Source of the DNA: Amphiscolops sp. MND2022
Taxonomy: Eukaryota
Reading direction: 5' to 3'
Assembly: GCA_964187785.1 (NCBI GenBank)
Contig: OZ076409.1
Coordinates: 76,324,001-76,388,000 of the forward strand
Length of the DNA: 64,000 bases
The position numbers and the translations under genes were made by a program. Positions 1 to 64,000 of the stretch are shown here, piece after piece. Under the pieces are notes generated by a model. The model was given only the letters and a program-made list of their open reading frames with translations. It made no database searches and was not told where the DNA came from. Within the stretch, counting starts at the first letter, position 1, and every line of letters starts with the position of its first letter.

Positions 1-900
1 AATTGATGGAGTAATAGCCCCAAATCGCACACATTTTGTCGAATTTTTTCGAAACCCTAGTCTATCTCTGCCGTTTTTTGGCCAGATTTTTTTCCAGGAC
101 CTCTCCTAAAGGCCTCCCCTGGCCGGTTTACCTCCCAGAAAAACCAGTTGGCCCTAAATACGGAGTTTCAGCATTCCAGTATTCCCCGGGTAAAAGATAA
201 ATGACTTAGAATTTTTTTCGAAAAATTTTCAAAATTTTTTTTTCAACTTCAGGCCTCCCAAAGTCAGGAAACTTCCACACAACTAGTATTGCAAGTTAAT
301 GCATGTGGAAAGTGCTTGCATAGACAAGAAAAATGAGCTATTATACGACTCTGTAGCTTAACCTGACGTTGACTTATGACAATTTTAGTAAGAGCTTCCT
401 ATGTGAGAAAAAATTTCAAAAAGTGAAAATTGAATCTAAGTCTCTTCCAAAACTCATCGGAATACGTTCAATTCACACCAGAGCGGTTCAATTCCAGTTG
501 TATAGTGCAGCAACACCATTCAAGGTCTTTTGGTCCATTTTTATAACTTTTGACACCGTCTTGTTCATCCGATAGCACAAAACAGTTGAGTACATTCCAT
601 CTCCCCCCTTGTGGGGGAGATGAGAATATACTCGCTAAAAGTCAGGTACTATAGCGCCCATTTTGTTTTATTCGACGCTAGTGATGCTATTGCACACGAA
701 TACAATAGTTTTGTCAAATCATGTTTGACATGATGAATCTTACTTTACCTTTAGTTTACGTTTACCTACTACTACAACATCGCAGCCCTAACGTCAACGC
801 CACACACTCTCACTAACGCCCACCGTCCGTGGGCATGCCGAGGCATGCCCTTCGACGACGTATGCCAAATAGCGCCACAGGGCGCAAACTTGTCCGCTAG
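1..900 (+). mobile_element. Non-autonomous unit, short class (5' part outside the window)
   Basis: GAGTACATT hairpin 588-633, core, CTAG. Confidence 0.8.
790..900 (+). other. Conserved right-end core (first copy; present at 29 of 31 termini)
   Basis: CAACGCC-N-AACGCCCACCGTCYGTGGGCATGCCGAGGCATGCCCTTCGACGACGTAT, then ~26-41 variable nt, then CTAG. Confidence 0.9.
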
Positions 901-2169
901 GTGGCCGGGAATTTTTTTTTCAGCAAAATCTTTGCCGCTGGGGGAGGGGCCCCGGGCGGCTGTTAACCGGAATTCATACTATGCAAAACCTATCACAATT
1001 CTCAGATCTCAGGATCCAGCCTGTAGGATTCGCTCAAATTTGGCACAGAGCCTCCTTGAAAGATTATAAGAACTTTTTCCTAGTGGCGTTTTTCGATTGA
1101 AATATTTTATGTTGACCAAAATTGCGTTTAAAATGCCCATTGTTGCGTTTTTATTGTCTTTTTCGAATTTGACGGTCCATAACTTTTTTTGAGGTGCTCG
1201 GAGCGGGTCGCACGTGGAGAACAATATTACTCAGCACTAAAAGGGGAGTGCGTGAACAAAATTTCGTCCAAATCGGATGAAAATTGGATGAGTAATAGCC
1301 GGAAATTTGGCGCATTTCGTCGACTTTTTTCGAAAACCCAGTCTATCTCTGCCGTTTTTTGCCCAGATTTTTTTCCAGGTCCTCGCCTAAAGGCCTCCCC
1401 TGGCCGGTTTACATCCCAAAAAAGCCATTTGGCCCTTTTGCCGCAGTTTCAGCGTTCCAGCGTTTCCCGAATAAAAGATAAATGACTTAGAATTTTTTCA
1501 AAAAATGTTCAAAAATTTTTTTTTTCAATTTCAGGCCTCCCAAAGTCAAGAAACTTCCACACAACTAGTATTGCAAGTGAATGCATGTGGAAAGTGCTTG
1601 AATAGACGAGGAAAATGAGCTATTATAAAACTCTGTAGCTTAACCTGACGTTGACTTATGACATTTTTAGTGTGAGCTTCCTATGTGCTAAAAAATTAAA
1701 AAACGTAAGTCTCTTTGAAAACAAATCGGAATACGTCCAGTCAACCCCAAAGCTGGTAAATTGCCGTTGTCTAGTGCAGCAACGCCATTTAGAGTCTTTT
1801 GACCCACTTTGATACCGTTTTGATACCGTCTTATTCATCCGATAGCACAAAACTGTTGCGTACATTCCATCTCCCCCTTTGTGGGGGAGATGAGAATGTA
1901 CCCGCTAAATGACACGCACAATGGCGCAATTTTATTTTTATACAATGTTTTCTAGGCTGTCGCGCAAGCCCACTAATATTTAGACTGGTTTCTTTCTCTT
2001 TCACTCCAAACTTTCCCTACTAACCACCTTACACACCATCAGCTCAACGTTACTTCTGTAACGTCAACGCCACAAACTCGCATCAACGCCCACCGTCCGT
2101 GGGCATGCCGAGGCATGCCCTTCGACGACGTATGCCCATTAGCGCCACAGGGCGCCCAATTTTTTCTAG
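901..2169 (+). mobile_element. Non-autonomous unit, short class (1269 bp)
   Basis: GTG start, GTACATT hairpin, core, CTAG. Confidence 0.8.
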
Positions 2170-9949: not shown

Positions 9950-10998
9950 GTGCCCAAATCCATTGATTTGCCAAACACTTCGAGGGCGGGGTAGGGCCCC
10001 CAGCCCGAGTCAAAAGTCGAAGACAAACAACTTAAGGCAACTGTCGAATTCTCCTATCGATTTTCTAAACGAGCCATACGATTTGGCTGAAATTTTGCAT
10101 ACGGCTTCCTATAACAATCCTAAGAACTAATCCCTACTGGCGTTTTGCCCGGAAAAATCAAAAAGTGGGTCAAAATCTTAGTTTTTTGGTCAAAAAATGG
10201 CGTTTTTTTGGAAAAAATTTTTTTAAGAGCCAATATCTCGCTCCACAGGCCCCGGATCAAAAAGTGTACAATTGTTCGCGTGCTAGGCACTTCATGAACT
10301 GTCCGTAGACAAATTTTCGTCCAGATCGGATGAAAATTGACTGAGTAATAGAAAACTTTGAAAGTGATTTTGACGACATTTTTCGAAAACCTAGTCTATC
10401 TCTGCCGTTTTTTGCCCAGATTTTTTTCTAGGACCTCTCCTAAAGGCCTCCCCTGGCCGGTTTACCTCCCAGAAAAACCATTTGGCCCTTTTGCCGCAGT
10501 TTCAGCGTTCCAGGATTCCCCGGGTAAAAGATAAATGACTTAGAATTTTTCGAAAAATTTTCAAAAAATTTTTTTTTCAACTTCAGGCCTCCCAAAGTCA
10601 AGAAACGTCCACACAACTAGTATTGCAAGTGGATGCATGTGGAAAGTGCTTGAATAGACGAGAAAAATGAGCTATTATAAACCTCTGTAGCTTAACCTGA
10701 CGTTGACTTATGACAATTTTAGTGTGAGCTAGCTATGGGAGAAAAAATTTCGAAAATTGAAAATCGAAGGTAAGTCTCATCCAAAACTCATCGGAATACG
10801 TTCAATCTATCCCAATGCGATTTAATACCAGCTAAATAGTGCAGCAACATCATTCAAGGTCATTTGGTCCGTTTTTAAAACTTGAGCCAATTTAAAAGAC
10901 AGTTTGAGTATAGGTAGGTTTTTGCTTTTTCCAGATGTCGGAGATGACTTTTTCTGCATACAGGTAGTATTTGGTAACAGGTTACGTCCAGTAAGTAT

Positions 10999-11305
10999 CT
11001 TATGGGTTGACCAGACGCCCCAGTAGGTCTGGCACGCTTTTCGGCACCGCGTTTCCTGAAGCCGCTGTGATAGGTAGGTTGTTTTTTGTAAAAATTCACT
11101 CGAAAAATTTTTCCTTATGGGTTGACCAGACGCCCCAGTAGGTCTGGCACGCTTTTCGGCACCGCGTTTCCTGAAGCCGCTGTGATAGGTAGGTTGTTTT
11201 TTGTAAAAATTAACTCGAAAAGTTTCCTTATGGGTTGACCAGACGCCCCAGTAGGTCTGGCACGCTTTTCGGCACCGCGTTTCCTGAAGCCGCTGAGATA
11301 GGTAA
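10999..11305 (+). repeat. Tandem repeat, ~114-bp period, ~2.7 copies
   Basis: CTTATGGGTTGACCAGACGCCCCAGTAGGTCTGGCACGCTTTTCGGCACCGCGTTTCCTGAAGCCGCTG at 10999, 11114 and 11227. Confidence 0.95.
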
Positions 11306-11354
11306 GTTTAAATTCCTTTAATACTAAGGCTTAGTTTTTTTGTCCCACGTTTTT

Positions 11355-11490
11355 TCGGATTAGGTTTCTTTAACTAACTTTCTTAGGTTTTTTAGGATTA
11401 GGTTTCTTAGGCTTACTTTCTTAGGTTTTTTAGGATTAGGTTTCTTAGGCTTACTTTCTTAGGTTTTTTAGGATTAGGTTACTAAGGCTC
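11355..11490 (+). repeat. TTAGG-rich minisatellite, 38-bp period
   Basis: TTAGGTT at 11360, 11398, 11436 and 11474 with conserved intervening sequence. Confidence 0.9.
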
Positions 11491-11999
11491 AGGTGTAGGT
11501 TTTAAACAGATATTAAGTTATCATGTATTTTGTTTTTTATCAGGGACTGCAACAACGACGAAAAAGGAATAACCTTGACGCAGCTTCTTTTCAGTTGAAT
11601 AATTCACTATTCATTTCATTTATTTCATCTATCGAAGATTTCATTTTTGTTAATTGAAACCTTTGAAACCGAGTCTTTTATTATTCCATTACACATTCTT
11701 TCGAATTTCATATTACTTACGACATGATTCATTTTCGGCTTTATATTTTTTCCTAATAATTTTCTACTTACTTTTTTATTTCCTTCAAAACATTGTCATC
11801 GGCATGAGAAATACGCGGCCTCTATCGACTGCAAATTCTGCTTTTCTTTGTCAAAAAACACATATATTTTTCAAATTACTTTTGAATTTGAATTTGAACT
11901 TTTTATTTTTCGATTACATTTTTTCTACTCTTTATGCTTTTAAACTGTAATCCTCAGAATTCTATCTGTTTTCAGCTCAAAATTTTTCAGAGCTTCAAT

Positions 12000-12560
12000 A
12001 TGACCAAATTAATCGTCAACGGATTGACATTTAATGCCGTCATCAAAGAAACCAGCCATAATTCTACAATGCTTTTCGGAGATTCTATCGTTAGACATTT
12101 TAATATGTCTGAAATTGACAAAGTTTGCTTGCCAGGCGGACGATGTGAAGATTTTCGAGCGATTATACAAGCAAGCAATTTTTCCCGTACTAGAGTAGCC
12201 ATTCTAATGTTCGGAGGGAACGACCTTGAGAGTCGTTATAAAGGAAGGATTTGGCGTCAACGGTTGTCCCCAGAGGATATATTGCAACAGATTTTGGAAA
12301 TTGCGTTTTTCTTATCGAATCGAGAAGTGGCAGTCTACGTAGTTGGTATTCCGCACCGTGGAAATCACTCTTTTGCTGATATTAAAGAGTTAAACACCCT
12401 TCTGTTCAACAACAGATGTCAAGTATTTAACTATGTTGGCCTAGGCAGCCAATTGTCGAAGGCAGCGGTGATCGGTCAAGATGGCGTGCATCTAAATGAA
12501 GAAGGCTTAAGCCGACTGAAGACAATATTTAAGAATAAAATTCTTAAGCACATCCAATAA
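12000..12560 (+). CDS. SGNH/GDSL hydrolase (esterase)-like protein, similar in motif layout to transposon-associated esterases
   Basis: Blocks FGDSIVR, LPGG, FGGNDL and DGVHLN. The ORF is open from 11934; ATG 12000 follows a TTTTTCAG acceptor-like site and is the likelier start. Confidence 0.8.
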   Translation: MTKLIVNGLTFNAVIKETSHNSTMLFGDSIVRHFNMSEIDKVCLPGGRCEDFRAIIQASNFSRTRVAILMFGGNDLESRYKGRIWRQRLSPEDILQQILEIAFFLSNREVAVYVVGIPHRGNHSFADIKELNTLLFNNRCQVFNYVGLGSQLSKAAVIGQDGVHLNEEGLSRLKTIFKNKILKHIQ

Positions 12561-12754
12561 ATTGCTCTCCTGATTATTACTTTTTAAATCTCAAATTGAT
12601 TGTTCACGATATTGATTGTTTTTTATTTATTGCTTTTACTTGTTTGATCTTTTGATTGCTTGTTTTAAAAAGCTGTTTGTGTGGCCTACTTGCATTTGAG
12701 ATGAATTGAAATGTTTTTGTATACTTTTTTATTCGTTTAATTGTCTTTGATTTT

Positions 12755-12977
12755 CATCACTGATCGACGGAAAGCGTGGTCAGTGATTAGGATTTTTAAA
12801 CAAATTGAGGTAGAAGTGTCATCACTGATCGACGGAAAGCGTGGTCAGTGATTAGGATTTTTAAACAAATTGAGGTAGAAGTGTCATCACTGATCGACGG
12901 AAAGCGTGGTCAGTGATTAGGATTTTTAAACATAATAAGGTAGAAGTGTCATCAGTTATCGACGGGAAACGTGGTTC
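12755..12977 (+). repeat. 65-bp tandem repeat, each copy carrying a bulged hairpin
   Basis: ATCACTGATCGACGGAAAGCGTGGTCAGTGAT at 12756, 12821 and 12886; degenerate fourth copy at 12951. Confidence 0.95.
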
Positions 12978-13246
12978 TACATTCAGGTAATATTTGGTAA
13001 GAGGTTGCGTCTGGTAAGTCTGGTAATTTAGTAAGCAGTGAATGGTGTTCAAATACAAAAGGTGAAAATGAAGTGCAACCGTGTTTCCAGTTATACGCAA
13101 TCTTTGTTATCTGTCAAAAAATGGTGACTTTTTCTGATGATGTCTAACAGGATCAGCGTTTTTCCAGATTTGATTTGAATTGCTTTGATCTGCTTTGCCA
13201 ACATTAACTTGTTTTGCTTGGCTATCAAAGAGGCTAAAAGTCCCCA

Positions 13247-16200
13247 ATGCCTCGTGGTAGAGGGAGAGGAAGGAGTGGCGGTACAGCAAGGAGGAAGTGT
13301 CCTGTGCACAATTCTTTTGTTGGTGCCGATGGTGTGTGTGGCAGGTGTGCGTCACAGGTGGAGCAACATCAGCAGGTGGAGAGTGATCAAGATGATCAAA
13401 CAGCCAGTAATGGCATTGTCCCCAATCCCCCAGATGCCCCCAATGATTTAGAGACGTCGGAGATGGAGATGTGTGCGAAGTGTGCCAGGATTAGTACTAA
13501 CAATTATCAACTTGACTTTCACGTTATACAAAAAGACTCGACTCATTCGACTATGTTTGGTAAAAATGTGCATGAAACCCAAGAGGAGACGATTAAAATG
13601 TGCCTACAGTGTGTTAACTACGACAGAAACACCAGTCGTCATACAGATTGGCCCAACGCGTGGCCCAGCGTAATGTATACTTTGCTTTTCGAGACTCATA
13701 GGTTTAGTTCAAATGCAGAGAAACTTTACAAAATACTTCCACATGAAATCAAAGACTCCTATAAACAACATATGTACACTGTTCATCCATCAATAGTTAG
13801 AACTGTTAACGAATCTGTTTTGAGGGACATAACAAAGGAAAAAGAAGAATTTTGGACTTTAATAAACAGTCGAACTGCGAAAAACTTAGTCAATGCTCTA
13901 ACTAAACACTGTTTTCCTAACATAAGATGCCCAGCAGGTTGTTTCGAATTCGTCGAGAAATCCCAAGGAATTTCATTCGCACATTTTCTAAACTGGATTT
14001 ACCCTCTCTTTACTAGTTTCAATGCCAACAGTAGAAAATTTTTGAAGGGAGCTCGAGAGGATTTCATGAAACGTATAATTTTGTTGGAAAAATTCAATGT
14101 TGCACCTTGTATCATGGTTAACGAGAAAGGTTTACAGTTAGTTACTTGTTGTGATCATAAAAACGGTGTCCTATTAAACTACGTACATGTACCATCAAAT
14201 CCAGTAGCAGGTAACATCAGTCCTATGTTCGTAGACAGGTTAGCCCTAATGGTTTCAAGTGTCAGAACGGTAAGACCTCTTAAAATTGGCGCTAAAAGTG
14301 CAACATTCACTATGTGCCGTGTGGACAGTGGACGCATTAGTGGCGTAAGTTCCACGGTATTGCATCATTTCAGGAACTTTGAAGCACCTTACAATGTACG
14401 TAGGATTGACGTGGAAAAATTGATCTTTAACTGTAGGTCTGATGTGAAGGATTTAATTCGAACATGTTGTCAAAGGTTTGAAATTACTGAAAACATAGCC
14501 AATGAATTTTTGAGTTTTGAATGTCCAGTAGCACTGACAGCAATAGAAGAAAGTTGTAAGGACGGGACCGTTTTTAACATGAATGCATTGATGCATATGA
14601 AGGATTATGTTGAAAGTTGTCCAGACGATATTACTGCGCGGGAAGACTTTAAAAAGCCACTTACTTTTGGTCATAAACTAGACGGTTATGGCTGCGAGCC
14701 AGTACAGATTCCAAAACTTATTTCACAGGATGTAACACTTTTCCCAGTTGTATTTGCTTCTGTTCACATTCAATCTTTTTGGTCAAAATTAATTGCAATG
14801 TCAAGACTGCACGTTGGATTTGAAAACATTTGTAAGTTTATACATCGTGTTAGGCAAAGCAAAAGTTTGCAGGAGCGTTCGGCTATTCCGACAATTCTCA
14901 ACGGGTTGCACAGTGCTTTTATGGATGTATTCCCAGGTCGAAGTGAGATTTTAGTTGAAATTTGCGAAATTCTCGAGGGTTCTTCTGTTTTCAAATGTCA
15001 TGCGGTAGATTTGCCCAATTTGACCATTGACTGTACTAGGAATGATCTTCTTCTAGTCGCAAACAACCCGTCTAGTAGGCGTGACACTCAAATTCTGTTT
15101 GAGCTAACATCAATCAATGGGAAAGTTTTTCAGTTAATTTTCATTGCCTCAGACAATCAATTGAGCTTTCGCCATGGTTCTCCTTTTTATAATTTTTGGA
15201 CTGTTAAAAACGACGGCAGTCGTCCTCGTAAAGATCCAACATTAGAATACCAATACAATAGAAATTGGAAATATTTAGTTTATGTTAGTGAGACTCAAGT
15301 CAACGATGACCCTAAAATTCGATACCTAAAGTATATGGGAGGCCAAGGTGTTTTGTTTTGTCGGGAGCATAATTTACCGTTAACATCAGACTATTTTAAA
15401 AGCAATAGGAAATGTTCCTTACCTAAGAATACCACCAATAATGCAATATGCACTAGAAAATCCGCATGGAGATGCCCTGAAAAGAACTGTTGCGCATCTT
15501 CTTGTAAAACTCATTTCAATGATTTTTGCGACTCCACCGACCGGGTTCTCGTTGACAATACGCCATCAGCGGACCCAATTCAAGATAGTAGTGACGAGGA
15601 AATAGAGTTGGGAAATGAAATAGACGTCCAAGGCAATCTCGATCAGCCCGGGCCCAGCTTCGTTTTACCGGAAGTTGAAAGACCAGAGGACACAGACGCT
15701 AATATGGACGAATTCGATTGTCCTCAACTAATTGTTGACGCCGGTTTTCAAGAGACTAACAATTTCGCTACCGACTCAGGCTGTGAGCCCGTTTATTTAG
15801 CTAACGATTCAAAATTTGTTCCAATGCACGTTCTTTTAAACGGCGAATGTCAGTTGATGAAACGCTTAAGGTATCCTACGCATATAGGTAAAAAATTTCA
15901 ACGGTTTTTTCAAAATTTTGTTTCAACTTTAGAAGGTCGTTCAATTCCTCTTCTTCAACCCGAAGCGTGCTTGTTTCCCAGCATCTTTTACAAGCAGTTA
16001 GAAGACGGATCGTTTCCTGGTGCTTTGCCATTTTTTCTTTACGATGATAAGTTTGCAAATTCAAAGTTGGATTTTGACGGCCTCCATGAACACATCCGAT
16101 TGAGACTTAAGGACGGCTCACTTTTAACTTCGGCTAATCTCGCTTATATAATGTATGCGTTTGACTGCGTCCTGAATTTATCTTTAACAAAATGCCATAC

Positions 16201-20365: not shown

Positions 20366-20427
20366 AATTCATTATCTTTTTCTTTAAAATAAAATTTAAA
20401 ATAAGGTATTTTGTGTTTTTTTTTGGT

Positions 20428-20742
20428 GGAATCGACGATGAGCGTGGTTCCAGGTAGGTTGTAATTAGGTTGGTTTGCTGGAATCGACGATGAGCGTGGT
20501 TCCAGGTAGGTTTTAATTTGGTTGGTTTGTTGGAATCGACGATGAGCGTGGTTCCAGGTTTGTTAAGGTTAACCTAAGTTGCTGGAATCGACGATGAGCG
20601 TGGTTCCAGTTTTTTTAACATTGATTTAATTTGGTGGTTTTCTTTACATTAGATTAGTGGATGAGTATCGCACAAAGTTCTACTAAAGAGGGTGGACACC
20701 GTGCGATATTCAACAGGTGGAATCGACGATAACCGTGGTTCC
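20428..20742 (+). repeat. 52-bp-period repeat of hairpin GGAATCGACGATGAGCGTGGTTCC
   Basis: Copies at 20428, 20480, 20532 and 20584; loop variant at 20719. Confidence 0.95.
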
Positions 20743-23210: not shown

Positions 23211-23306
23211 AGTCATTTGACTGCATCTGTTTACAGAGATTCGCTAGAAGGCAAGAATTAATCCGACTGGAAACTGCGGTCGATTCTTTAGTTGCCTTTT
23301 TCTTTC

Positions 23307-24114: not shown

Positions 24115-24309
24115 AAGTTTGCTTATTTTGAATTTGAGTGTAACTATGTAACGACAACCCTTCCGCATTCTCTAACATCATTAACCACTAATTAACCTCT
24201 CAACCAACACCCGACTGAAGACGATTCTTCTCCAATCACGTAAGTAACTTTTTTCTCTCTTTAACACTTTCCCGCCTACTGGACTCTTCGTTTTGCCGTC
24301 CACGTCTAG

Positions 24310-50624: not shown

Positions 50625-52594
50625 GTGCGGGGGGGAAACCCCATCCCTTATCTTGGAGGATTCGGGTAGGGTCCTGAATCCGATCTTAGTTCGCCCAGCT
50701 CTCAGTAGAAATCTGGGAAATTTTTTGCGATCTCGTGATCTAACCATAGGATTTTAAAGTTGGAGCGGCCCCCACCAGATTTTCCAAAGTTATTCGCCCC
50801 CCACCGGGTTCCAGCGTGATTGAAATATTTTGACGGGGTACACGGGCGACCGTTAGGGGTCATTTTGGGGGTAAAATTTATATCCGGTCGCATAACTTTT
50901 TTCCTGTTGGATTAAAACTTTGGGACCCTACTAAAAGTTTCTTGACCGTGTTGCGGGGGCTCCGGAGGTCCAAACCAAATTTTTCTATCTTGAAGCTATC
51001 TCCAAGTACCCCCCCGCCCAAAACGTTATTTTTCCGGAAACGCAGGTTTTTGACCCGGAAGGAGTCGTCGGAGCGCGGGGTCGTTAGGTGATGTATTGGG
51101 GACGGCCTTAAGACGAAGTGGGGGACATGCAGTTTGCCAACCCCAGTTTACCCCCCGGACGGGAAATGACCGTTATATGAGCGGGAAAAATGCCCCCCTC
51201 CACGTTTTACCGCTATTTCCGGTGTGAAGGAGTGGGAGTAGCGCGTCGGGTGCCATATATCAAAAGTAGGTTTGAACAAGGAACTATCGGAAACATGTGG
51301 TTTGGGACCCCCTGGACCAACCCGTTAGCGGGAAATGGGGCTTCCGCCTCCTTTTTTTACTGCTAAAACAGTAAAATGGGCATTGAGGGGTAAATATCTC
51401 GTGAACGCGTGGAGCAATCGTGTCCATCACTACTACAAGGTTTCATACCCATGATATGGTGCCTTCAGGGGGGCAAACAGATTTCCGCTATCTATCACCG
51501 TTACCGACTTGGCCCCCCAGCCTAACCGCTATGTGACCGGAAATGTCACTTTTTGAGCCCAAAGGGTCGGTCCCAGCCGGGGAACGTTAGGTAAATTATT
51601 GTAGTACTCAATGAGACGAGTTGGGGGATATAGTTTCAGTCACCCCCCGTTACCCCTTGGGACCGGAAATGACCGTTATGTGGGTAAAATTGCAATTTTT
51701 ATACTTTTTCAAGTGTATTTAGGTGCGGAAGGAGTGGTAATAGGTGCTTGGACACTATATGAGGCAAGGGAGGACGTGAGGCGAGCATTCGGAAATAACC
51801 GTTATGTTGACCCTAAAGTCCCCCTGGTACCGTAAACGACCGGAAATGGTCAAATTTTGTGTCTATTGGGTACAAATGTTTAGTATTTTGTAGATAAAAG
51901 TATCTATTAGGTGTTTCGACGGTCTGCAGTAGTGAACATAGTCATGAAACCTTGTGGGGGGTAACGGTATATAGCACCGGAAGTCCAAACCGTTGGTGAC
52001 AGGATAGGTTTTTTGGTTTTAAAATGTCTTTCGGCGTACCTTTGTCGACTATTAAGGACTATTTTTAAAAATTAAAGATTTTCCATATAGTTTCAGAGAC
52101 CTCGAAACCTCAACCAACATAACCGTTACCTCATGATAGCCTTTCAAGTTGGCCTGGTGTCAACTTGGAAGGGCTATCCTTCAAAAATCGTCAATCAAGT
52201 GTGTTTTTGGGTATGTTTGTATCATTTTAGAATCAATTAGAGCTTCAAGAAAAGTTTCCCAACAACAAAAACTATGTCGTGAAGATTCCGTTACTAGAAT
52301 TATAGTTAGCAAATTGTTGAGAAAATTTTTTTTTCCAAATTAAATGTGTCCTAAATGCCAGGAAACCTATTTTACTAACAAATGGTATTGATTGGAATGT
52401 ATGTAACAGATTTATAAAAGTTCAAATTGATTATTAGGTTTCATTATGGAAGCTGAAACGTAATATTTTAGTTTAATTAACGTCAACGCCACACACTTTA
52501 CATCAACGCCCACCGTCTGTGGGCATGCCGAGGCATGCCCTTCGACGACGTATACCAAATACATACCTAACGACGCCCGTACATCCCGGGCTAG
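50625..52594 (+). mobile_element. Non-autonomous unit, long class (1970 bp)
   Basis: Same architecture. Confidence 0.8.
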
Positions 52595-54569
52595 GTGCGG
52601 GGGGGTAACCCCAACAAAATTTTTGGAGGATTCGGGTAGGGTCCTGAATCCGATTTCAACTCTAATAGCTATCGATAGGAAATCTTGCAAAAATTTCGGG
52701 ATCTCGTGATCTAACCATAGGATTTTAAAGTTGGAGCGGCCCCCACCAGATTTTCCAAAGTTATTCGCCCCCCACCGGGTTCCAGCGTGATTGAAATATT
52801 TTGACGGGGTACATGGGCGACCGTTAGGGGTCATTTTGGGGGTAAAATTTATATCCGGTCGCATAACTTTTTTCCTGTTGGTTTAAAACTTTGGGACCCT
52901 GCTAAAAGTTTCTTGACCGTGTTGCGGTGGCTCCGGAGGTCCAAACAAAATTTTTCTATCTTGAAGCTATCTCCAAGTACCCCCCCGCCCAAACCGTTAT
53001 TTTTCCGGAAACGCAGGTTTTTGACCCGGAAGGAGTCGTCTGAGCGCGGGGTCGTTAGGTGATGTATTGGGGACGGCCTTGAGACGAAGCGGGGGACATG
53101 TAGTTTGCCAACCTCACTTTACCCCCCGGACGGGAAATGACCGTTATATGAGCGGGAAAAATGCCCCCCTCCACGTTTTACCGCTATTTCCGGTGTGAAG
53201 GAGTGGGAGTAGCGCGTCGGGTGTTATATAACAAAAGTAGGTTTAGACAAGGACCTAACGGAAACATGTAGTTTGGGACCCTCTGGACCAACCCGTTAGC
53301 GGGAAATGGCGCTTCCGCTTCCTTTTTTTACTGCTAAAACCGTAAAATGGGCATTGAGGGGTAAATATCTCGTGAACGCGTGGAGCAATCGTGTCCATCA
53401 CTACTACAAGGTTTCATACCCATGATATGGTGCCTTCAGGGGGGCAAACAGATTTCCGCTATCTATCACCGTTACGGACTTGGCCCCCCAGCCTAACCGC
53501 TATGTGACCGGAAATGTCACTTTTTGAGCCCAAAGGGTCGGTCCCAGCTAGGGAACGTTAGGTAACTTATTGTAGTACTCAATGAGACGAGTTGGGGGAC
53601 ATAGTTTCAGTCACCCCCCGTTACCCCTTGGGACCGGAAATGACCGTTATGTGGGTAAATTTGCATTTTTTATACTCTTTGAAGTGCATTTATGTGCGGA
53701 AGGAGTGGTAATAGGTGCTTGGACACTATATGAGGTAAGGGAGGACGTGAGGCGAACATTCGGAAATAACCGTTATGTTGACCCTAAAGTCCCCCTGGTA
53801 CCGGAAGTGACCCGTAATGGTCAAATTTTGTGTTCAAAGGGTACAAATGTTTGGTGTTTTATGGATAACAGTGCCTATTAGGTGTTTCGACGGTCTGCAG
53901 TCGTGAACATAGTCATGAAACCTTGTGGGGGGTAACGGTATATAGCACCGGAAGTCCAAACCTTTGGAGAAAGGATAAGTTTTTTGGTTTTAAAATGTCT
54001 TTCGGCCTACTTTTGTCGACTATTATGGTCTATTTTTGAAAAATAAAGTTTTTCCATATAGTTTCAGAGACTCCGAAACCTCAACCAACATAACCGTTAC
54101 GTTATGATAGCCTTTCAAGTTGGCCTGGTGTCAACTTGGAAGGGCTATCCTTCAAAAATCATTAATCAAGTGTGCTTTTGAGTATGTTTGTATTACTTTA
54201 GAATCAATTAGAGCTTCAAGACAAGTTTGCCAACGACAAAAACTATGTCGTGATGATTCCGTTATTAGAATAATGGTTAAGAAAATGTTGATAAATTTGA
54301 TTTTTTACATTTCAAATGTGTCCTAAATGCCAGGAAACCTCTTTACCAAACAAATGGTATTGAGTGAATTGTATATAACAGCTAATAAAAGTTCAAATTG
54401 AATATTACGTTTCATTTTGGAAGCTGAAACGTCATATTGTAGTTTAATTAACGTCAACGCCACATACTTTACATCAACGCCCACCGTCCGTAGGCATGCC
54501 GAGGCATGCCTTTCGACGACGTATACCAGATTCCACCCACACAACACCCCCGAGCGCGGTAGCAGCTAG
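52595..54569 (+). mobile_element. Non-autonomous unit, long class (1975 bp)
   Basis: Same architecture; right half as in 28148-30121. Confidence 0.8.
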
Positions 54570-55959
54570 GTGGTCGGGGCGGTCCCCAGAACGCACATGG
54601 AGGCGCGGGGAGGGTCCTGCGCCGACGTAGAATAATTTCATAAAATACTATTATCCTACATGGGTGTTTTGGAAGCGATTTTGGAACCTACCCGTCAGAT
54701 TTGGATAATTTTTTGCATGCAGCCATAACTCAAAATTCTAAGAACTTTTTCTTTCTGTCATTTTCCCCGCAAATTGTTTTTTGTTGACTTATGGCCAAAA
54801 AACCGGAAATAACGTCCTTTTTAGACGTTATATCCGAAGTGTCGTCATAACTTTTTTCCAGGGCATGCTAGCGTTCTCCTTCACTTTTACACTTTGTTTT
54901 AGCATCTCAAAATACAACTGGTGGAAAATTTTGGTTGCATTCGGATCACCCCCCACCGAGATAGAAGGGTTCCCCCCTCCAGTTTTACCCCCCAAAATTG
55001 AGAAAATACCAATTTTGAGCATGAAGCCGTGGATTTAGCGAATCCTCACCCCCCTGATGTTTTGTCGGACATGTTAGGGTCAATCTGGTGACATGTGTGG
55101 TTTTCACCCCCAACCCCCCCTGGGACCGGAAATGACACTTTTTTGTGTTTTTTGACAAAAATGAGCCTTTTTGATCAGTAGGGAGTCGTTTTTGGGCCTC
55201 CTAGCAGGATATCGAAGTTGAAATACAACTTGATCACAACCCAGTGACAACATGTTGGCCAGTTGCAGGTACCATCATGACCGGAAGTGGGGTCAAACCC
55301 CCCTTTTTGTGACCGCTTTTTGACCTTGTGCACCAAAATGCCAACAACTTGAGGCCTAATGACGCATTCAAATCTGTACAAAGATAGAACGTTAGACAAC
55401 GGAAGTCCCGCAAGCTCTTTAGCATATACCGGAAATTACCCCCCATGACCGGAAGTTGTCCAATGTGACCGGAAATGGCCCAAAAATTTATGTAAAGTTA
55501 CTTTTTTCACTATTTGAAGACCTTTTCGTTGAACATTTTCAATCTCAAAACTAGCGTACTAGCTTGTGGCGTTGAATTTATGGAAATTGATGAGCTTTAT
55601 CACCCCCGATAGCCTTCGAAGTTGACCTTGCGTCAACTTTGGAGGCTATCGATTCTGAAAATGAATAACAAAGTACAATGTTGCTCTCGTTTTTTTTCTG
55701 TTGTTTTTCCTCAAACATTCTTGAGACATATTCATGGCTGTTAGTTGGAATCAATAATTTAGACCATGTTATGGCGGGAGTAGCGAAGCGTTACACAGGC
55801 TAGTGTGGTTTTGAAATTACAATTTTTAAAATAACAAATGACCGTCTTAGTCAACGCCACACTTTCATACCAACGCCCACCGTCTGTGGGCATGCCGAGG
55901 CATGCCCTTCGACGACGTATGACGAATCCACTTAAACGACGCCCGCAGTCCTTAGCTAG
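54570..55959 (+). mobile_element. Non-autonomous unit, middle class (1390 bp)
   Basis: Diverged relative of 7286-8682; GATAGCC hairpin 55608-55650. Confidence 0.8.
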
Positions 55960-57245
55960 GTGGCCGGAAATTTTTTTTTCAGCAAAATCTTTGCCATTGG
56001 GGGAGGGGCCCCGGATGGCCAGTAGTACGGGATAGCTTCCTACCAAATCCAGATGGAAAAAACGTGATTTTGGAAACTAGCCGTCAGAATTTGCTCAAAA
56101 TTTGCATACGGCTTCCTATGACAATCCTAAGAACTAATCCCTACTGGCATTTTGCCCAAAAAACGCAAAAAGTTGGTCAAAATCTTAGTTTTTTGGTCAA
56201 AAAATGGCAATTTTTCGAAAAAAATTTTTTTCAGAGACAATTACTCGTAACTGGTTCACCCAGCGCAAAAACGCCTAGCTGATTTATTGTTGGGCACTTC
56301 ATGAGGAGTGCGTATACAAATTTTTGTCCAGATCGGAAAAAAATTGACTAAGTATTAGCCGGAATTCGAACGCATTTTTTCGCAAATTTTTGAAAACCTA
56401 GTCTATCTCTGCCGTTTTTTGCCCAGATTTTTTTCCAGGTCCTCTCCTAAAGGCCTCCCCTGGCCGGTTTACTTCCCAGAAAAACCAATTGGCCCTAAAT
56501 ACGGAGTTTCAGCGTTCTAGCATTCCCGGGCGAAAAGATGTGGGACTTAGAAAAAATTCAAAATTTTTCAAAAAATTTTTTTTTCGTTTTCCGGCCCCCA
56601 ATGAAGGGGAACGACCCCCCAACGAGGATTTTTGGTGAATTCACGTGGAAAGGCCTTGTTTTGTGGAGCAAATTGCCGTTTAGAGCAACTTTTTATCTTA
56701 ACTTGACGTTGACCTCTGTCGTTTTGAATTTGATATTAGTATGTGTTGAGCATGTGAAAAGTTGATGATTTCAGTTGTTCTCTCGTGTTCAAGCCATTGA
56801 GATACAAGCGGTAGTGGTCAAAATGTGATTTATCGCAATTTGATGGTGCTTTTGGTGTATTTTGATTCTTTTAAATAAAAAGTTGTTCTTTATATATTTG
56901 GTGTATTGATTCAAATGAACAAGAAACAGTTGAGTACATTTCATCTCCCCCCTTGTGGGGGAGATGAGGATGTACCCGCTAAATGACACGCACAATGGCC
57001 CAATTTTATTTTTATGCGACATTTTCTAGGCTTTTGCGCAAGCCCACTAAAATTTAGACTGGTTTCCTTTTCTTTTACTCCAAAATTTTCCGTACTAACC
57101 ACCTTACGCACCACCAGCTCAACGTAACACCTGTAACGTCAACGCCACACACTCTCACTAACGCCCACCGTCCGTGGGCATGCCGAGGCATGCCCTTCGA
57201 CGACGTATGCCAAATAGCGCCACAGGGCGCAAACATTCCCGCTAG
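55960..57245 (+). mobile_element. Non-autonomous unit, short class (1286 bp)
   Basis: Same architecture. Confidence 0.8.
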
Positions 57246-59238
57246 GTGCGGGGGGGAAACCCCTTCCTTTATCTTGGAGGATTCGGGTAGGGTCCTGAAT
57301 CCGATTTTAGTTCGCCCAGCTCTCAGTAGAAATCTGGGAAATTTTTTGCGATCTCGTGATCTAACCATAGGATTTTAAAGTTGGAGCGGCCCCCACCAGA
57401 TTTTCCAAAGTTATTCGCCCCCCACCGGGTTCCAGCGTGATTGAAATATTTTGACGGGGTACACGGGCGACCGTTAGGGGTCATTTTGGGGGTAAAATTT
57501 ATAAAAGTTCGCATAACTTTTTTCCTGTTGGTTTAAAACTTTAGGACCCTGCTAAAAGTTTCTTGACCATGTTGCAGGGGCCCCGGAGGTCCAAACCAAA
57601 TTTTTCTATCTTGAAGCTATCTCCAAGTACCCCCCCGCCCAAACCGTTATTTTTCCGGAAACGCCGGTTTTTGACCCGGAAGGAGTCGTCTGAGCGCGGG
57701 GTCGTTAGGTGATGTATTGGGGACGGCCTTGAGACGAAGCGGGGGATATATAGTTTGCCGACCCCAGTTTACCCCCCGCACGGGAAATGACCGTTATATG
57801 AGCGGGAAAAATGCCCCCCTCCACGTTTTACCGCTATTTCCGGTGTGAAGGAGTGGGAGTAGCGCGTCGGGTGTTATATAACAAAAGTAGGTTTAGACAA
57901 GGACCTATCGGAAACATGTAGTTTGGGACCCCCTGGTCCAACCCGTTAGCGGGAAATGGGGCTTCCGCCTCCTTTTTTTACTGCTAAAACCGTAAAATGG
58001 GCATTGAGGGGTAAATATCTCGTGAACGCGTGGAGCAATCGTGTCCATCACTACTACAAGGTTTCATACCCATGATATGGTGCCTTCAGGGGGGCAAACA
58101 GATTTCCGCTATCTATCACCGTTACCGACTTGGCCCCCCAGCCTAACCGCTATGTGACCGGAAATGTCACTTTTTGAGCCCAAAGGGTCGGTCCCAGCCG
58201 GGGAACGTTAGGTAACTTATTGTAGTACTCAATGAGACGAGTTGGGGGATATAGTTTCAGTCACCCCCCGTTACCCCTTGGGACCGGAAATGACCGTTAT
58301 GTGGGTAAAATTGCCATTTTTGTCCTATTTGGAGGGCATTTAGATGCGGAAGGAGTGGTAATAGGTGCTTGGACACTATATGATGTAAAAGAGGACGTGA
58401 TGCGAGCATTCGAAATTAACCGTTATGTTGACCCCTAAGTCCCCCTGGTACCGTAAATGACCGGAAATGGTCTAATTTTGTGTTTATTGGGTACAAATGT
58501 TTGGTATTTTATGAGTTAAAGTACATGGAAGGTGTTTCAAAGGCCTCCAGAAGTGAACATCGTCATGAAACCTTGTGGGGGGTAACGGTATATAACACCG
58601 GAAGTCCAAACCGTTGGTCACAGAATAGGTTTTTTGTTTTCAAAATGTCTTTAGGTGTAGTTTTATGGGTTGAATCGTCATAATATCAACTATTACGGAC
58701 ATTTTTCGGAAAAAAAATTTTTTCACATTAGTTTCAGAGACCTCCAATGCTTCAGTCAACATAACCGTTACATTTTGATAGCCTTTCAAGTTGGCCTGGC
58801 GTCAACTTGGAAGGGCTATCCTTCTAAAATCGTTAATCAAGAGTGTTTTTGGGTAGGTATATGTTGCATTAGTACCAATTAGAGCTTCATCAACAGTTTG
58901 CCAACGGCAAAAACGATGTCGTGATAATTCCGTTATAAGAATATTAATTAAAAAATTGTTTACAAAGTTGATTTTTTTCATTTAAAATGTGTCCTAATGC
59001 CACCAAATTGAATAAAATAATAAATGGTATTGACTAAAACTAAATAACATTGAAAAAGAAGATCAACATTTTTATTAGGTCTCATTATGGAAGCTGAAAC
59101 CTCACGTTTTAACTTGATTAACGTCAACGCCACATACTTTACATCAACGCCCACCGTCTGTGGGCATGCCGAGGCATGCCCTTCGACGACGTATACCAAA
59201 CAACCTCCATATCTACACCCAATTGCGGTAGCAGCTAG
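57246..59238 (+). mobile_element. Non-autonomous unit, long class (1993 bp)
   Basis: Same architecture. Confidence 0.8.
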
Positions 59239-61426
59239 GTGGAGGTTATTTTATAATAATTAAAGTGTTTTTTTCCGGAGTTTGTGGCTTTGGAAAAAAC
59301 AAAAGGCGAGAAATTGGGCACTCCGGGCTGAACCGTATACACTCAAAATTCGCCCAATATTTATACGATCTCGAAACCCAGCCGTACGATTTGGCTGAAA
59401 ATTTGCATGCGGCTAAAAAATCAGATTCTAAGAACTATTTCCTGCTGACATTTTTTTGAAATTTTTGTGTACGTTTCCCCCCCGCCCCCTAAAGGGGTCA
59501 ATTTTCCCCAATTTTGCACTTATGAGCCAAATTCTCAAAACTGGTGGATCTGAGCGTATTCCCGGCGGGGACAACTTTTAACGCGCGCTCCTCAGTAGAC
59601 CTTTTTGACTTTTAACTTTGGTGGTACGTTCACCCCCCGAGGAGGAAATGGCGTTTTTGTGACTTCCGGTCGAGGCTTTTTTCACCCAAAAAATAGAATT
59701 AAGCCAATTTTGAGCAGGAAGGAGTGGATTTAAAGTGCCTGTACCCTGCTAAAAATTTGTTGGGCTTGTAGCGATATATCTCATACCAAGTCTGGTCTTC
59801 ACCCCCAAACCCCCCTTGGGACCAAAATTCACCCAAACTTTTTTTACCTCTGTTTGTAGTTTTTTTTTGCAAAATGTCGTCATTTCCATGGGTAAGGAGT
59901 TGAATTAGGGGCTCCTAATAGGGTACCAATGTTCAAGTACACTTGCAGTGCAACTGAGTGACCCTTTTGGGGCCTCTCCTGTGTTCGGCGAGGACCGGAA
60001 GTGGTGTAAACCCCCCTTTTTTGACGTTTGTTGACCTTGAGACTCGCGCTTAGATGACGTTTATGTCGCGCAAATCCTACAAACCAGTATTAGGATGACA
60101 TGCTAGCCTACTAGAGAGCACTAAGGGAAACTATACTATACCGGAAGTAACCCCCCGTGACCGGAAGTTGTCATTTTTGACCGGAAATGGTCCAAAACAT
60201 AGCGTAAAAGCAGTTTTCATTGCTTTTAAAGTCAACTTATTACTTTTTTCAGTCTGCGCGAGCTTGTCTTCAGATTCGTTTTTGTTGTCCGTGCACACTA
60301 CAACAAATATACATCTGTAGAACTTTTGCTATAATATCGTCGGAGAGAGAAATAACGGGTTTTCGGAATTTTTTTCAAAAATGTTTGTCTATATCTATCA
60401 TTTTTACCCAACGTTATTCAACAGTAGAACCACAGGGGTTAGTATCTGCCAAAATATATGCCTAACAAAACCACTCGTCCCATTGGTTGCAGTTTGAGCG
60501 TTCTAGCTTTGCCTGGTCACAAGTTGAGGGACTTCAAAAAGTTTCAAATTTTTTTGGAAAATTTTTTTTAAACGTCACGTCTCCCAAAGTTAAGAATTTT
60601 CCACACAACTAGGATTGCAAGAGAATGCACATGGTAAGACCTATAAATGGAGAGAAAAATTCCGTTCAGAACGTCTCTTTATCGTTACGTGACGTTAAAA
60701 GATGTTGCTTTGAATGTGAATTTGATAATGCGTCGAGAAGTAAAAGAGTGTGAATGGATCCTATGTCTCGACAAATACTCATCGCAATACATACGATGAA
60801 CCCCAATTACCCTCACTTTCAGTTGGCTAGTACATCAGCGTCTTCCAAGGACCGTTTACCTATTTAAAAATTGTCAAATTCATTATTAATATCAGTTAGC
60901 AAGAAATATTTGAGTACATTGTCATCTCTCCCCATCGGGTGAGATGAGAATGTTCTTGCTAAAAGTCAAGTACTACGGCCCATTTTTGTTTTATTGCGAC
61001 GTTTTCTGTGCCTTAGCACAAGGATACTTTTATGTCATCTCACTTTTGTTATACAATCTGACTTGTTGTTATAAAATTCTCGTCATTACTTTACCTAAAC
61101 TTACTACCATGCATCTTTAACGTCAAAGCCAAATTCATTTAGACGCCCACCATTCCGTAGGTATGCCGAGGTATGCCTTTCGAAGAAGTATGGCAAAACA
61201 CAAACGGGCAAATGAAAAGGGCTGAAATTCAGAAACAGTCACAAACAATTTTGACTATTTGACCGATGGTAGGTTTTTATATGGAACTTACACATCACTG
61301 ACATTTCAAAACATTCCAGCTGACGCCCACTTACAAACATCAACGCCCACGGTCCGTGGGCATGCCGAGGCGTGCCCTTCGACGACGTATGGCAAATACC
61401 TTTTACGACGTCCCAACTTTCCCTAG
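59239..61426 (+). mobile_element. Composite non-autonomous unit (2188 bp) with two right-end cores
   Basis: Middle-class-like left half and diverged short-class right half; degenerate core ~61118-61191, intact core ~61340-61390. Confidence 0.75.
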
Positions 61427-63401
61427 GTGCGGGGGGGAAACCCCAACAAAGATATTGGAGGATTCGGGTAGGGTCCTGAATCCGATCTTAGTACCGCCAG
61501 CTATCAGTAGAAAATTTCCCTCGAAAACCGGGATCTCGGGAACTAACCGTAGGATTTGAAAGTTGGAGCGGCCCCCACCAGATTTTCCCGAATAGATCGC
61601 CCCCCACCGGGCTCCATACCCCGGAAAATTTTTTTTTGGCCACACGGGCGACAGTTAGGGGGTCATTTTAGGGGTAAAATTCATATTGGTCCATATAACT
61701 TTTTTCCTGTTGGTTTAAAAGTTTGGGAACCCTGCTAAAGGTTTTTCGACCATGTTGCAAGGGCTCCGGAGGTGCAAACCAAATTTTTCTATCTTGAAGC
61801 TATCTCCAAGTACCCCCCCGCTCAAACCGTTATTTTTCCGGAAACGCAGGTTTTTGACCCGGAAGGAGTCGTCTGAGCGCGGGGTCGTTAGGTGATGTTT
61901 TGGGGACGGCCTTGAGACAAAGTGGGGGACAAGTAGTTTGCCAACCTCAATTTACCCCCCGGACGGGAAATGACCGTTATATGAGCGTGAAAAATGCCCC
62001 CCTCCACGTTTTACCGCTATTTCCGGTGTGAAGGTGTGGGAGTAGCGCGTCGGGTGCCATATATCAAAAGTAGGTTTAGACAAGGATCTATCAAAAACAT
62101 GTGGTTTGGGACCCCCTGATCCAACCCGTTAGCGGGAAATGGGGCTTCCGCCTCCTTTTTTTTCGGTTAAAAACGGAAAATGGGCATTGAGGGGTAAATA
62201 TCTCGTGAACGTGTGGAGCTACGGTGTCCTTCACTACTACAAGGTTTCATACCCATGATATGGTGCCTTCAGGGGGGCAAACAGATTTCCGCTATCTATC
62301 ACCGTTACGGACTTGGCCCCCCAGCCTAACCGCTATGTGACCGGAAATGTCACTTTTTGAGCCCAAAGGGTCGGTCCCAGCCAGGGAACGTTAGATAACT
62401 TTTTGTAGTACTCATTGAGACGAGTTGGGGGACATAGTTTCAGTCACCCCCCGTTACCCCTTGTGACCGGAAATGACCGTTATGTGAGTAAAATTGGGAT
62501 TTTTGTACTTTTTGAAGGGCAATTAGGTGCGGAAGGAGTGGTAATAGGTGCTTGGACACTATATGATGGAATGGAGGACGTGAGGCGAACATTCAGACAT
62601 AACCGTTATGTTGACCCTAAAGTCCCCCTGGTACCGTAAACGACCGGAAATGGTCAAATTTTGTGTCTATTGGGTACAAATGTTTGGTATTTTGTAAATA
62701 AAAGTATCTATTAGGTGTTTCGACGGTCTGCAGTAGTGAACATAGTCATGAAACCTTGTGGGGGGTAACGGTATATAGCACCGGAAGTCCAAAACGTTAG
62801 AGACGGGATAGGTTTTTCCGTTTTAAAATGTCTTTCGGCGTACTTTTGTCAACTAATATGGAATATTTTTTAAAATTAAAGTTTTTCCATATAGTTTCAG
62901 AGACTCCCAAACCTCAAACAACATAACCGTTACCTTATGATAGCCTTTCAAGTTGGCCTGGTGTCAACTTGGAAGGGCTATCCTTCAAAAATCGTTGATC
63001 AAGTGTGTTTTTGGGTATGTTTGAATCATTTTAGAATCAATTAGAGCTTCAAGAAATGTTTGCCAACGACAAAAACTATGTCGTGATGATTCCGTTATTA
63101 GAGTGATAGTTAACAAAATATTGATTAAGTTGATTTTTTACATTTCAAAAGTGTCCTAAAAGCCAGAAAACCTCTTTACCAAACAAATGGTATTGATTGG
63201 ATTGTATATAACAGGTAATAAAAGTTCAAATTGATTATTACGTTTTATTATGTAAGCTGAAACGTCATATTATAGTTTAATTAACGTCAACGCCACATAC
63301 TTTACATCAACGCCCACCGTCTGTGGGCATGCCGAGGCATGCCCTTCGACGACGTATACCAAACACCTTTAATATCTACACCCACCCGCGGTAGCAGCTA
63401 G
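61427..63401 (+). mobile_element. Non-autonomous unit, long class (1975 bp)
   Basis: Same architecture. Confidence 0.8.
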
Positions 63402-64000
63402 GTGCGGGGGGGTAACCCCAACAAAGATATTGGAGGATTCGGGTAGGGTCCTGAATCCGATCTTAGTACCGCCAGCTATCAGTAGAAAATTTCCCTCAAA
63501 AACCGGGATCTCGGGAACTAACCGTAGGATTTGAAAGTTGGAGCGGCCCCCGCCAGATTTTCCCGAATAGATCGCCCCCCACCGGGCTCCATACCCCGGA
63601 AAATTTTTTTTTGGCCACACGGGCGACAGTTAGGGGGTCATTTTAGGGGTAAAATTCATATTGGTCCATATAACTTTTTTCCTGTTGGTTTAAAAGTTTG
63701 GGAACCCTTCTAAAGGTTTTTCGACCATGTTGCAAGGGCTCCGGAGGTGCAAACCAAATTTTTCTATCTTGAAGCTATCTCCAAGTACCCCCCCGCTCAA
63801 ACCGTTATTTTTCCGGAAACGCAGGTTTTTGACCCGGAAGGAGTCGTCTGAGCGCGGGGTAGTTAGGTGATGTTTTGGGGACGGCCTTGAGACAAAGTGG
63901 GGGACAAGTAGTTTGCCAACCTCAATTTACCCCCCGGACGGGAAATGACCGTTATATGAGCGTGAAAAATGCCCCCCTCCACGTTTTAACGCTATTTCCG
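63402..64000 (+). mobile_element. Non-autonomous unit, long class (truncated by the window end)
   Basis: Left end near-identical to 61427. Confidence 0.8.

Follow-up and report, generated by a model that had tools for sequence, protein, structure and literature searches.

The 64,000-nt stretch analysed here (Amphiscolops sp. MND2022, contig OZ076409.1, positions 76,324,001 to 76,388,000 of the forward strand; hereafter the window) consists of mobile units of different families, one of them encoding a RepHel transposase, which are joined head to tail at a short word, CTAG^GTG (the caret marks the joint). The array to which it belongs most plausibly reflects a self-targeting form of Helitron transposition, in a RepHel-GIY-YIG lineage that has seldom been described. 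Unit ends, target word, absence of a duplication, regeneration of the word at each joint, a strong bias towards junctions and mobility at the level of single units were all directly seen. Based on sequence comparisons, we consider it probable that such arrays are built by unit-by-unit, junction-targeted integration, carried out by the HUH transposase of this divergent Helitron-like lineage.

A sequence-only reading of the window had reported 31 precise CTAG^GTG junctions in a single orientation, and our recount bore this out: CTAGGTG occurs 31 times on the plus strand and not once on the minus strand, compared to 1.99 on average and 7 at most in 100 runs of a first-order Markov model. Cut at these junctions, the window falls completely into units of 1.27-2.8 kb and a single 14,360-bp unit with the RepHel open reading frame (ORF), and an all-against-all BLAST yielded no opposite-strand match among the units. 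That adjacent units belong to different families was found to hold for 24 of the 31 junctions, at which unlike families or distant subfamilies meet; at the remaining seven, a 1.97-kb family is present on both sides, with copies 88-99% alike (at least 98% at two of these junctions). The junction word, described as invariant, is not strictly so: the 186 junctions of the full array comprise 183 CTAG^GTG, two CTGG^GTG and one CTAG^GTT. Nested or truncated units are missing inside the window, as had been stated, whereas the full array contains one off-junction insertion and one internally deleted autonomous copy. Neither a tRNA nor an Rfam family at gathering score was found in the window, which rules out a host RNA gene array (5S, spliced leader, tRNA). 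A Helitron residing inside a host satellite was also ruled out, since both ends are common to autonomous and non-autonomous units and the outer ends of the array are joined exactly to a host element.

The full array spans 354,697 bp (C1:76,132,617-76,487,313) of the 1.07-Gb genome and contains 187 units; it was split into 186 units at first, until a hidden CTGG^GTG joint was recognised, and some of the counts given below use 186. Its outer boundaries, proposed as a check by the earlier reading, revealed the founding target, a single bond in a young host mobile element that reads CTTG^GTC and thus matches the junction. In ten of ten fetched paralogs the two flanks are contiguous (...AAACTTG^GTCAATC...) without any duplication, so that the claimed lack of a target duplication stands for the founding event; a single 35-bp duplication was found outside the window. 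The host flanks are 97.9-99.4% identical to the ten uninterrupted paralogs, hence the array is younger than the divergence of the host copies (about 1% or less). Its units nevertheless fall into 83 clusters at 95% identity, from which it follows that they did not diverge in place, and 22 of 186 have no relative of at least 90% identity inside the array. Scored matches to the right flank number 40 genome-wide, and no match was obtained when the whole array was compared with its flanks. The host element itself (breakpoints C1:76,132,616 and 76,487,314) is young, multicopy and about 99% identical between copies; its ORFs match zinc-finger, endonuclease VII and, below the cut-off, DNA polymerase B domains, a set for which we take it to be Maverick/Polinton-like.

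Genome-wide, the flanks of these ends turned out to be junctions in the great majority of cases and not dispersed sites, as the sequence-only reading had implied. Class-A 3' ends are followed by GTG in 3,843 of 3,924 cases (about 98%), totals that are exact-motif counts in which a few GTG may be host sequence and a few ends may be counted twice; class-B 3' ends, those of relatives of the window's autonomous element, are followed by GTG in 159 of 190. Other class-A ends are followed by GT and another base (29), by A, C or T (50) or by G and a base other than T (2). Of these, 25 of the 29 adjoin non-array DNA while four are mutated junctions, and 27 of 30 examined from the group of 50 adjoin non-array DNA as well. 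T was found at position +2 of the host 3' flank in 28 of 30 examined (20 AT, 7 TT). CTNG terminates the host 5' flank in 16 of 20 cases, 10 of 11 in one set and 6 of 9 in another. From the first set, reverse-strand artefact rows and rows flanked by the end of another element had been excluded (one retained row, C1:23.975-23.982 Mb, may also be an element end); the second was drawn from 19 loci, among which eight yielded no start, two were junctions and two had starts that were shifted by a few bases by eye. Solo insertions number at least nine. The bare target is CTNG^(G/A/T)T, of which the junction is an instance. Since free copies mostly sit at this word and the elements run from GTG to CTNG, the target word is recreated wherever two units are joined head to tail, and a unit inserted at one joint consequently leaves two.

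Extrapolation from 23 CTNGGT sites in 21 kb of flank predicts about 1.2 million such sites genome-wide, so that the preference for a few thousand junctions must have a cause beyond the target word itself. Inside the array units, 167 CTNGGT sites are present, 44 on the plus and 123 on the minus strand; if all sites were equal, about 35-87 off-junction insertions would be expected among 186, and one was seen. The word is rarer on the transposed strand (44 versus 123, and 266 versus 575 for a degenerate form; these counts are not independent, the units being related), as expected if cryptic nick sites are selected against. Arrays are found on several chromosomes and in both orientations, which contradicts the single safe-harbour locus envisaged in the earlier reading, and altogether extrapolate to several megabases (about 3,900 class-A ends, units averaging about 1.9 kb). 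Arrays and intact RepHel ORFs occur in clusters over multi-megabase stretches (C1:70.5-76.5 Mb; C2:102-104 Mb, a chromosome end; C3:2.4-3.9 Mb), and distances of a few kb to tens of kb separate oppositely oriented arrays at C1:23.975-23.982 Mb and C1:76.02-76.10 Mb, hinting that new arrays are founded near old ones. One solo element near C2 16,310,000 has a 5' host flank that we presume to be tRNA-like.

Where two near-identical copies are compared, their similarity ends at the junction, the place predicted for breakpoints, and their neighbours differ. Among 116 non-adjacent twin pairs in the array (at least 99% alike), 106 have neither neighbour in common. At a threshold of at least 95%, no trimer recurs among the 186 units; higher-order repeats and a reciprocal-chimera signal across junctions were likewise not found in the array. 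Adjacent units are at least 99% alike in 3 and at least 95% alike in 11 of 185 cases, and twins are spaced by a median of 61 units compared to about 54 at random. Two autonomous copies 171 kb apart show four differences in 14,150 bases and have unlike upstream neighbours, and the unit at 7286-8682 of the window has a 100% identical twin 3.3 Mb away among other neighbours. Types of 5' and 3' ends show a strong association inside the same unit (p < 0.0005), yet none was found between units that meet at a junction (p 0.11-0.15), which speaks against homologous integration of circles. Taken with the 167 internal CTNG^GT sites that were left unused, the unlike neighbours of near-identical units argue against tandem amplification, unequal crossover and homologous integration. 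The idea of repeated integration at an existing junction that is recreated each time is hence supported by founding site, end counts and twin neighbours alike. Its proposed similarity to integron cassette accretion is a formal one, as no polarity of growth was found: nearest-twin identity, a crude proxy for age, does not rise or fall from one array end to the other (Spearman p 0.60 and 0.37), and units seem to be inserted at junctions all over the array.

The transposase ORF of the window's autonomous element is intact and matches Helitron_like_N (E 3e-10, above the cut-off), PF05970 (PIF1, E 3e-11) and GIY-YIG in Pfam, while its helicase matches Pif1 structures and the Helraiser helicase. SLX1, the nearest solved structure of the C-terminal domain, cuts branched DNA. 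A single-sequence fold of the Rep domain was discarded (pLDDT 34.5). The product of the ORF at 22203-23210 is a probable single-stranded DNA-binding protein, judged from its predicted model (pLDDT 64), which matches RPA/CST/MCM10 OB folds (Foldseek E 7e-5, low TM-scores) with a best structural match of Z 8.2 and rmsd 3.4 over 111 residues, in agreement with an Atlas search; by sequence it has no match in Pfam or PDB, and it was placed by fold and Atlas searches only. Homologs of this ORF are located downstream of RepHel in seven other autonomous families, at 24-32% identity.

Besides the deleted copy, the array contains four intact RepHel ORFs from three families (67-71% identical). Genome-wide, 131 RepHel matches were obtained, with many more intact ORFs than the four of the array. 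Four of five divergent autonomous families (a-e) occur in the same mixed arrays; their Rep is 34-41% identical to that of the window. Families a, c and d have junctions at both ends and family b at its 3' end, its 5' end being outside the fetched stretch, and each copy of these families has different neighbours. At least six divergent autonomous families are present in shared arrays. Families a, c and d have a class-A end and are likely partners of most window units. In one sub-lineage (family b and relatives), the RepHel ORF stops right after the helicase and a separate 204-aa frame lies downstream, so the GIY-YIG domain may have been split off by an intron or frameshift, or lost.

Structures at the ends of units are shared across families. 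The core of a 5' hairpin is present in 160 of 187 units; its arms vary in sequence, but pair in 23 family types, and in 1,000 arm swaps this stability was never reached. The class-A 3' hairpin occurs in 29 copies in the window, while a strong terminal hairpin was sought at the class-B end and not found. Terminal inverted repeats were not detected in the 30 complete window units, in which the longest exact match between the first 60 and the last 120 nt amounts to 4-8 nt in a comparison run with no shuffled control. A near-perfect internal hairpin (TACATTCCATCTCC...GGAGATGAGAATGTA) and several fixed-position motifs are conserved across the 1.27-kb superfamily, the hairpin possibly serving second-strand priming or transposase binding. 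Two near-complete, distant relatives from one metagenome scan (27% identity) carry the same GGGGAGGGTCCC hairpin core near the 5' end, on contigs too short to show their neighbours. Scans of viral contigs for arrays in other organisms gave nothing usable.

Table 1 Features of the window and of the array around it (window coordinates; caret, joint between units).
Feature	Position	Strand	Remarks
Window	1..64000	+	Segment of a larger mixed head-to-tail array, which extends from -191,383 to 163,313
CTAG^GTG junctions (31), position of C of CTAG	897 (first word 897..903), 2166, 3476, 4745, 6013, 7282, 8679, 9946, 24306, 25591, 26875, 28144, 30118, 32916, 34910, 36882, 38168, 39454, 41440, 43413, 45406, 47377, 49348, 50621, 52591, 54566, 55956, 57242, 59235, 61423, 63398	+
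Non-autonomous units, ~1.27-kb superfamily	901-2169, 2170-3479, 3480-4748, 4749-6016, 6017-7285, 8683-9949	+
Non-autonomous unit, 1.4-kb family	7286-8682	+
Class-A 3' hairpin (example)	2101..2120	+	GGGCATGCC-GA-GGCATGCCC, ~50 nt 5' of CTAG; z = -2.87
Internal hairpin	1861-1900, 3166-3203, 4445-4482, 5713-5749, 6979-7016, 9643-9679, 27844-27880, 50315-50354
Autonomous element, 14,360 bp	9950..24309	+	GTG...CACGTCTAG; class-B 3' end, without strong terminal hairpin
5' (left-end) hairpin loop/core	9989..9999	+	GGG(T/G)AGGG(C/T/A)(C/T)C, ~40 nt inside unit
SGNH/GDSL-like hydrolase ORF	11898..12560	+	Weak Pfam match below cut-off
RepHel-GIY-YIG transposase ORF	13238..20365	+	Intact, 2,375 aa stop to stop; first ATG 13247
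HUH motif H1129-Y-H1131	16622..16630	+	Both His invariant in 20 diverse homologs
Y2 catalytic tyrosines Y1300, Y1304	17135..17149	+	Invariant in 20 diverse homologs
Pif1-family helicase core	18563..18976	+	Walker A GPPGTGKT, invariant in 20 homologs
C-terminal GIY-YIG endonuclease domain	20018..20233	+	Nearest solved structure SLX1, E 9e-14
OB-fold (RPA/CST/POT1-like) ORF	22203..23210	+	Putative single-stranded DNA-binding protein
Minisatellites flanking the ORFs of the autonomous element	10999-11308, 11349-11489, 12754-12975, 20422-20609, 24019-24125
Non-autonomous units, ~1.28 kb	24310..28147	+
Block dominated by 1.97-kb family	28148..64000	+
Other units in this block, 2.8 kb	30122-32919	+
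Other units in this block, 1.28 kb	36886-38171, 38172-39457, 49352-50624, 55960-57245	+
Other units in this block, 1.39 kb	54570-55959	+
Other units in this block, 2.19 kb	59239-61426	+

The 52-65-bp minisatellites of the autonomous element have a common core resembling ATCGACG...GCGTGGT. The non-autonomous unit at 25595-26878 carries a class-B end, and its first 934 bp are 90% identical to the autonomous element.

But how could a transposase come to insert into its own junctions? In the mechanism that we propose, a single nick-site consensus on the plus strand, CTNG^(G/A/T)T, would be used to start, to stop and to integrate. RepHel would be recruited to chromosomal junctions by terminal structures, namely the covarying 5' hairpin about 40 nt inside the unit and/or the 3' end, and would nick a chromosomal junction like the joint of a circular intermediate. 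An incoming single unit, linked through a 5'-phosphotyrosine, might then be joined to the freed 3'-OH, its single strand being held by the OB-fold protein, and the branched intermediate might be resolved by the SLX1-like GIY-YIG domain together with replication. An array would thus be founded by a rare insertion at a bare host site and grow by one unit at a time at internal junctions, with each transposase leaning towards the junctions of its own families. Helraiser cleaves the junction of its right and left terminal sequences (RTS-LTS) precisely in vitro (PMC5876387), and IS91 has CTTG as target and CTCG as terminator (10.1101/2025.01.24.634351). Beyond this genome, we incline slightly towards the broader view of a separate, widespread branch, defined by RepHel, an SLX1-like GIY-YIG domain and an OB-fold partner and comprising hundreds of distant homologs. 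In this branch, the transposase would act as a site-specific integrase for its own end-to-end junction, reading the nick word and a structured hairpin and regenerating the site, with unrelated members sharing megabase-scale 'selfish islands'.

Several observations weigh against junction-targeted integration of single units as a complete account. Class-B ends are less confined to junctions (84%), 4 of 20 host 5' flanks do not read CTNG, and no junction of family e was found in the fetched 20 kb. Integration can also be imprecise, since the one off-junction insertion of the full array (units 57/58, about -89,700 to -85,700 in window coordinates), located just inside a 5' end, shows a 35-bp duplication and no CTNG. 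At another locus, a short 3' fragment is flanked by a repeated 12-bp word, and a minor, imprecise insertion pathway may exist. Matching dimers are slightly more frequent than expected by chance (5 versus 1.4 at 99%, p 0.018), units 55-56 being identical to units 127-128 and a few further dimers near-identical, which points towards some two-unit read-through or block copying. Families also clump: the 1.97-kb family forms 25 runs compared to 85 after shuffling, and class B-B neighbours number 14 compared to 5.9. The clumping suggests a preference for cognate junctions, but fits block insertion or bursts in time as well.

Family clumps, the slight dimer excess and the fast origin of 355 kb in a young site would indeed also be accounted for by concatemers formed off the chromosome, if RepHel joined circles or linear single strands of different families and the mixed multimer was then inserted as a block. 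Such a scheme uses the same enzyme and junction chemistry, and chromosomal junctions need not be preferred. We regard it as unlikely, as a single 355-kb insertion is implausible, any later blocks would depend on junction targeting as well, given that internal sites were left unused, and the solo insertions (at least nine) demonstrate that monomers do integrate. Even less likely appears a copying of multi-unit blocks between arrays by terminator read-through, followed by reshuffling through junction-to-junction excision or nick-site recombination: bypass of the terminator is established for Helitrons (PMC4778049, PMC6431247) and would leave dimers such as the identical one, but there are no shared trimers in the 186 units, common neighbours are lacking for 106 of the 116 twins, copies on other chromosomes have other neighbours, and the first exact abutment of unlike families is left unexplained.

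Satellite-like growth is largely refuted and has slightly less still to commend it; it would start from a tandem multiplied through unequal crossover, rolling-circle replication or homologous circle integration, with later divergence of the units in place. Tandem Helitron arrays are known (PMC5876387, PMC12001565), and the long runs of the 1.97-kb family as well as the 11 of 185 neighbours that are at least 95% alike would be in line with it. Against this, the site has diverged from its paralogs by less than about 1%, whereas units diverge far more from one another or lack any relationship along most of their length; higher-order repeats and a reciprocal-chimera signal are missing, the spacing of twins is close to random and no more than 3 in 185 adjacent pairs reach 99% identity. 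An assembly artefact, with dispersed repeats chained at a shared end word, is the least credible explanation of all: the units are repetitive and some are identical, yet both array ends match the two sides of one empty site in ten of ten paralogs, the common word is just 7 bp long, some free ends are flanked by unique sequence and many chromosomes carry arrays.

With an HUH-Y2 Rep, a fused Pif1 helicase and no target-site duplication, the elements belong to the Helitron-like superfamily. Within it, the sequence comparisons make a separate third clade beside HLE1 and HLE2 likely, though not proven. Homologs of the Rep-helicase core comprise 340 cluster representatives at E up to 1e-30; a GIY-YIG domain is present in 125 of 151 full-core sequences, and many of the other 26 end at or just after the helicase. 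The lineage profile is about equally far from HLE1 (E 7e-16) and HLE2 (E 5e-18) of the same genome, to which the RepHel of the window is about 18-21% and about 19-20% identical, respectively, and its Pfam score is 45 bits compared to 205 for the genome's own HLE1. In a phylogenetic tree, 26 members of the GIY lineage stand apart from 22 HLE2 (UFBoot 58 and 100), in a sample that includes one HLE1 and those HLE2 subgroups reached by one query, seven of 56 chosen sequences having been dropped with no detectable motif. DUF6570 has no match in 19 lineage proteins. The canonical HLE1 (C13:53.14 Mb) and HLE2 (C1:34.71 Mb) of this genome have long open frames and scattered positions.

HLE1 elements such as Helraiser share with our elements the HUH-Y2 Rep-Pif1 fusion, a CTAG 3' end with a subterminal hairpin, the lack of a duplication, non-autonomous derivatives, an accessory OB-fold gene for binding of single-stranded DNA and RTS-LTS junctions cleaved by the transposase (PMC4778049, PMC5876387, PMC11417382). 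The CTRR 3' end of HLE1 is found here as well (CTAG in 184 of 186 junctions, CTGG in 2), whereas the 5' TC start is not: our units start with GTG, a boundary fixed by the empty site. Moreover, HLE1 inserts at A^T, while the elements described here insert at CTNG^(G/A/T)T and carry a C-terminal GIY-YIG domain. Helraiser inserts at AT genome-wide without local clustering (PMC4778049), compared to about 98% of class-A copies at junctions. HLE2 (Helitron2/Helentron; PMC11417382, PMC3627910) resembles our elements in an additional C-terminal endonuclease on RepHel, hairpins near both ends and, in some relatives (P0018, P0076), an OTU domain. The asymmetric terminal inverted repeats, T^T or T^C target and DUF6570 of HLE2 are not seen in the elements described here. 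HelenSM92 of Sphagnum, compared by its description only, is a GIY-YIG-bearing HLE2 with inverted repeats and TT sites (HELIANO, PMC11417382). Replitrons have a Rep without helicase and short direct terminal repeats (PMC10288648), whereas here a helicase is present and the ends are GTG and CTAG.

The whole lineage seems to target its own junctions almost exclusively and without disrupting new host sequence, a self-made safe haven that also offers a route from transposon to heterogeneous tandem array needing no unequal crossover. According to the prevailing view, Helitrons select their targets by a loose dinucleotide preference, and their tandems are mostly explained by rolling-circle read-through. 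As the ORFs are intact, the target is defined and the nuclease is SLX1-like, both parts of the Helitron integration step, target choice and resolution, can be tested directly. If our reading is true, the arrays would be the equivalent of att-site stacking in a eukaryote, driven by an HUH enzyme, and would offer a natural scaffold by which cargo of 1-15 kb is integrated repeatedly and without scars at a planted site, which would be of interest to genome engineers. A literature search that covered neither most subscription journals nor Repbase yielded no report of a Helitron lineage targeting its own junction as a rule, and no RepHel-GIY-YIG clade beyond the remark on HelenSM92.

In integron cassette arrays, unlike mobile units are found in tandem at a regenerated site, with tyrosine recombinases and one fixed site; no tyrosine recombinase ORF was found in the long array units examined. 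Among Helitrons, one unlike head-to-tail pair in maize was attributed to consecutive insertions (PMC2267711), and self-insertions are described in Fusarium (PMC5148889). Known Helitron tandems have the same exact CTAG-to-5' joints, but occur, in the sources cited, as isolated pairs or homotypic runs (2-7 copies in Xenopus), whereas here junctions are used as a rule: one array contains 187 units from dozens of subfamilies, and the genome thousands of junctions. The telomeric Helitrons of Paramecium (PMC13085455) likewise constitute a separate clade with sequence-specific, orientation-fixed targeting of a renewable site, but target the host telomeric repeat and have a CCAA end and 9-10-kb ORFs, while here the target is the element's own junction. 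Members of the IS91 family (10.1101/2025.01.24.634351) are comparable in being Y2 HUH rolling-circle elements whose target (CTTG/GTTC/CTCG) resembles their own terminal word CTCG and which make no duplication; they differ in being bacterial and, as described there, in lacking a helicase, and large mixed arrays do not figure in the account consulted. In tandems formed by double insertion of transposable elements (10.1101/158386), repeated insertion occurs at a preserved target as well, but the target is kept by target-site duplication, whereas here the element's own ends rebuild it without any duplication. In Vibrio cholerae, integrative mobile elements exploiting Xer (IMEX: CTX, RS1, TLC, VGJ) also stack as unlike units at a regenerated dif site and are single-stranded rolling-circle elements (PMC4246890). 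IMEX arrays, however, depend on tyrosine recombinases and one fixed chromosomal site, while in the arrays described here the catalyst would be the HUH enzyme encoded by the element, each junction serves as a site and growth shows no polarity.

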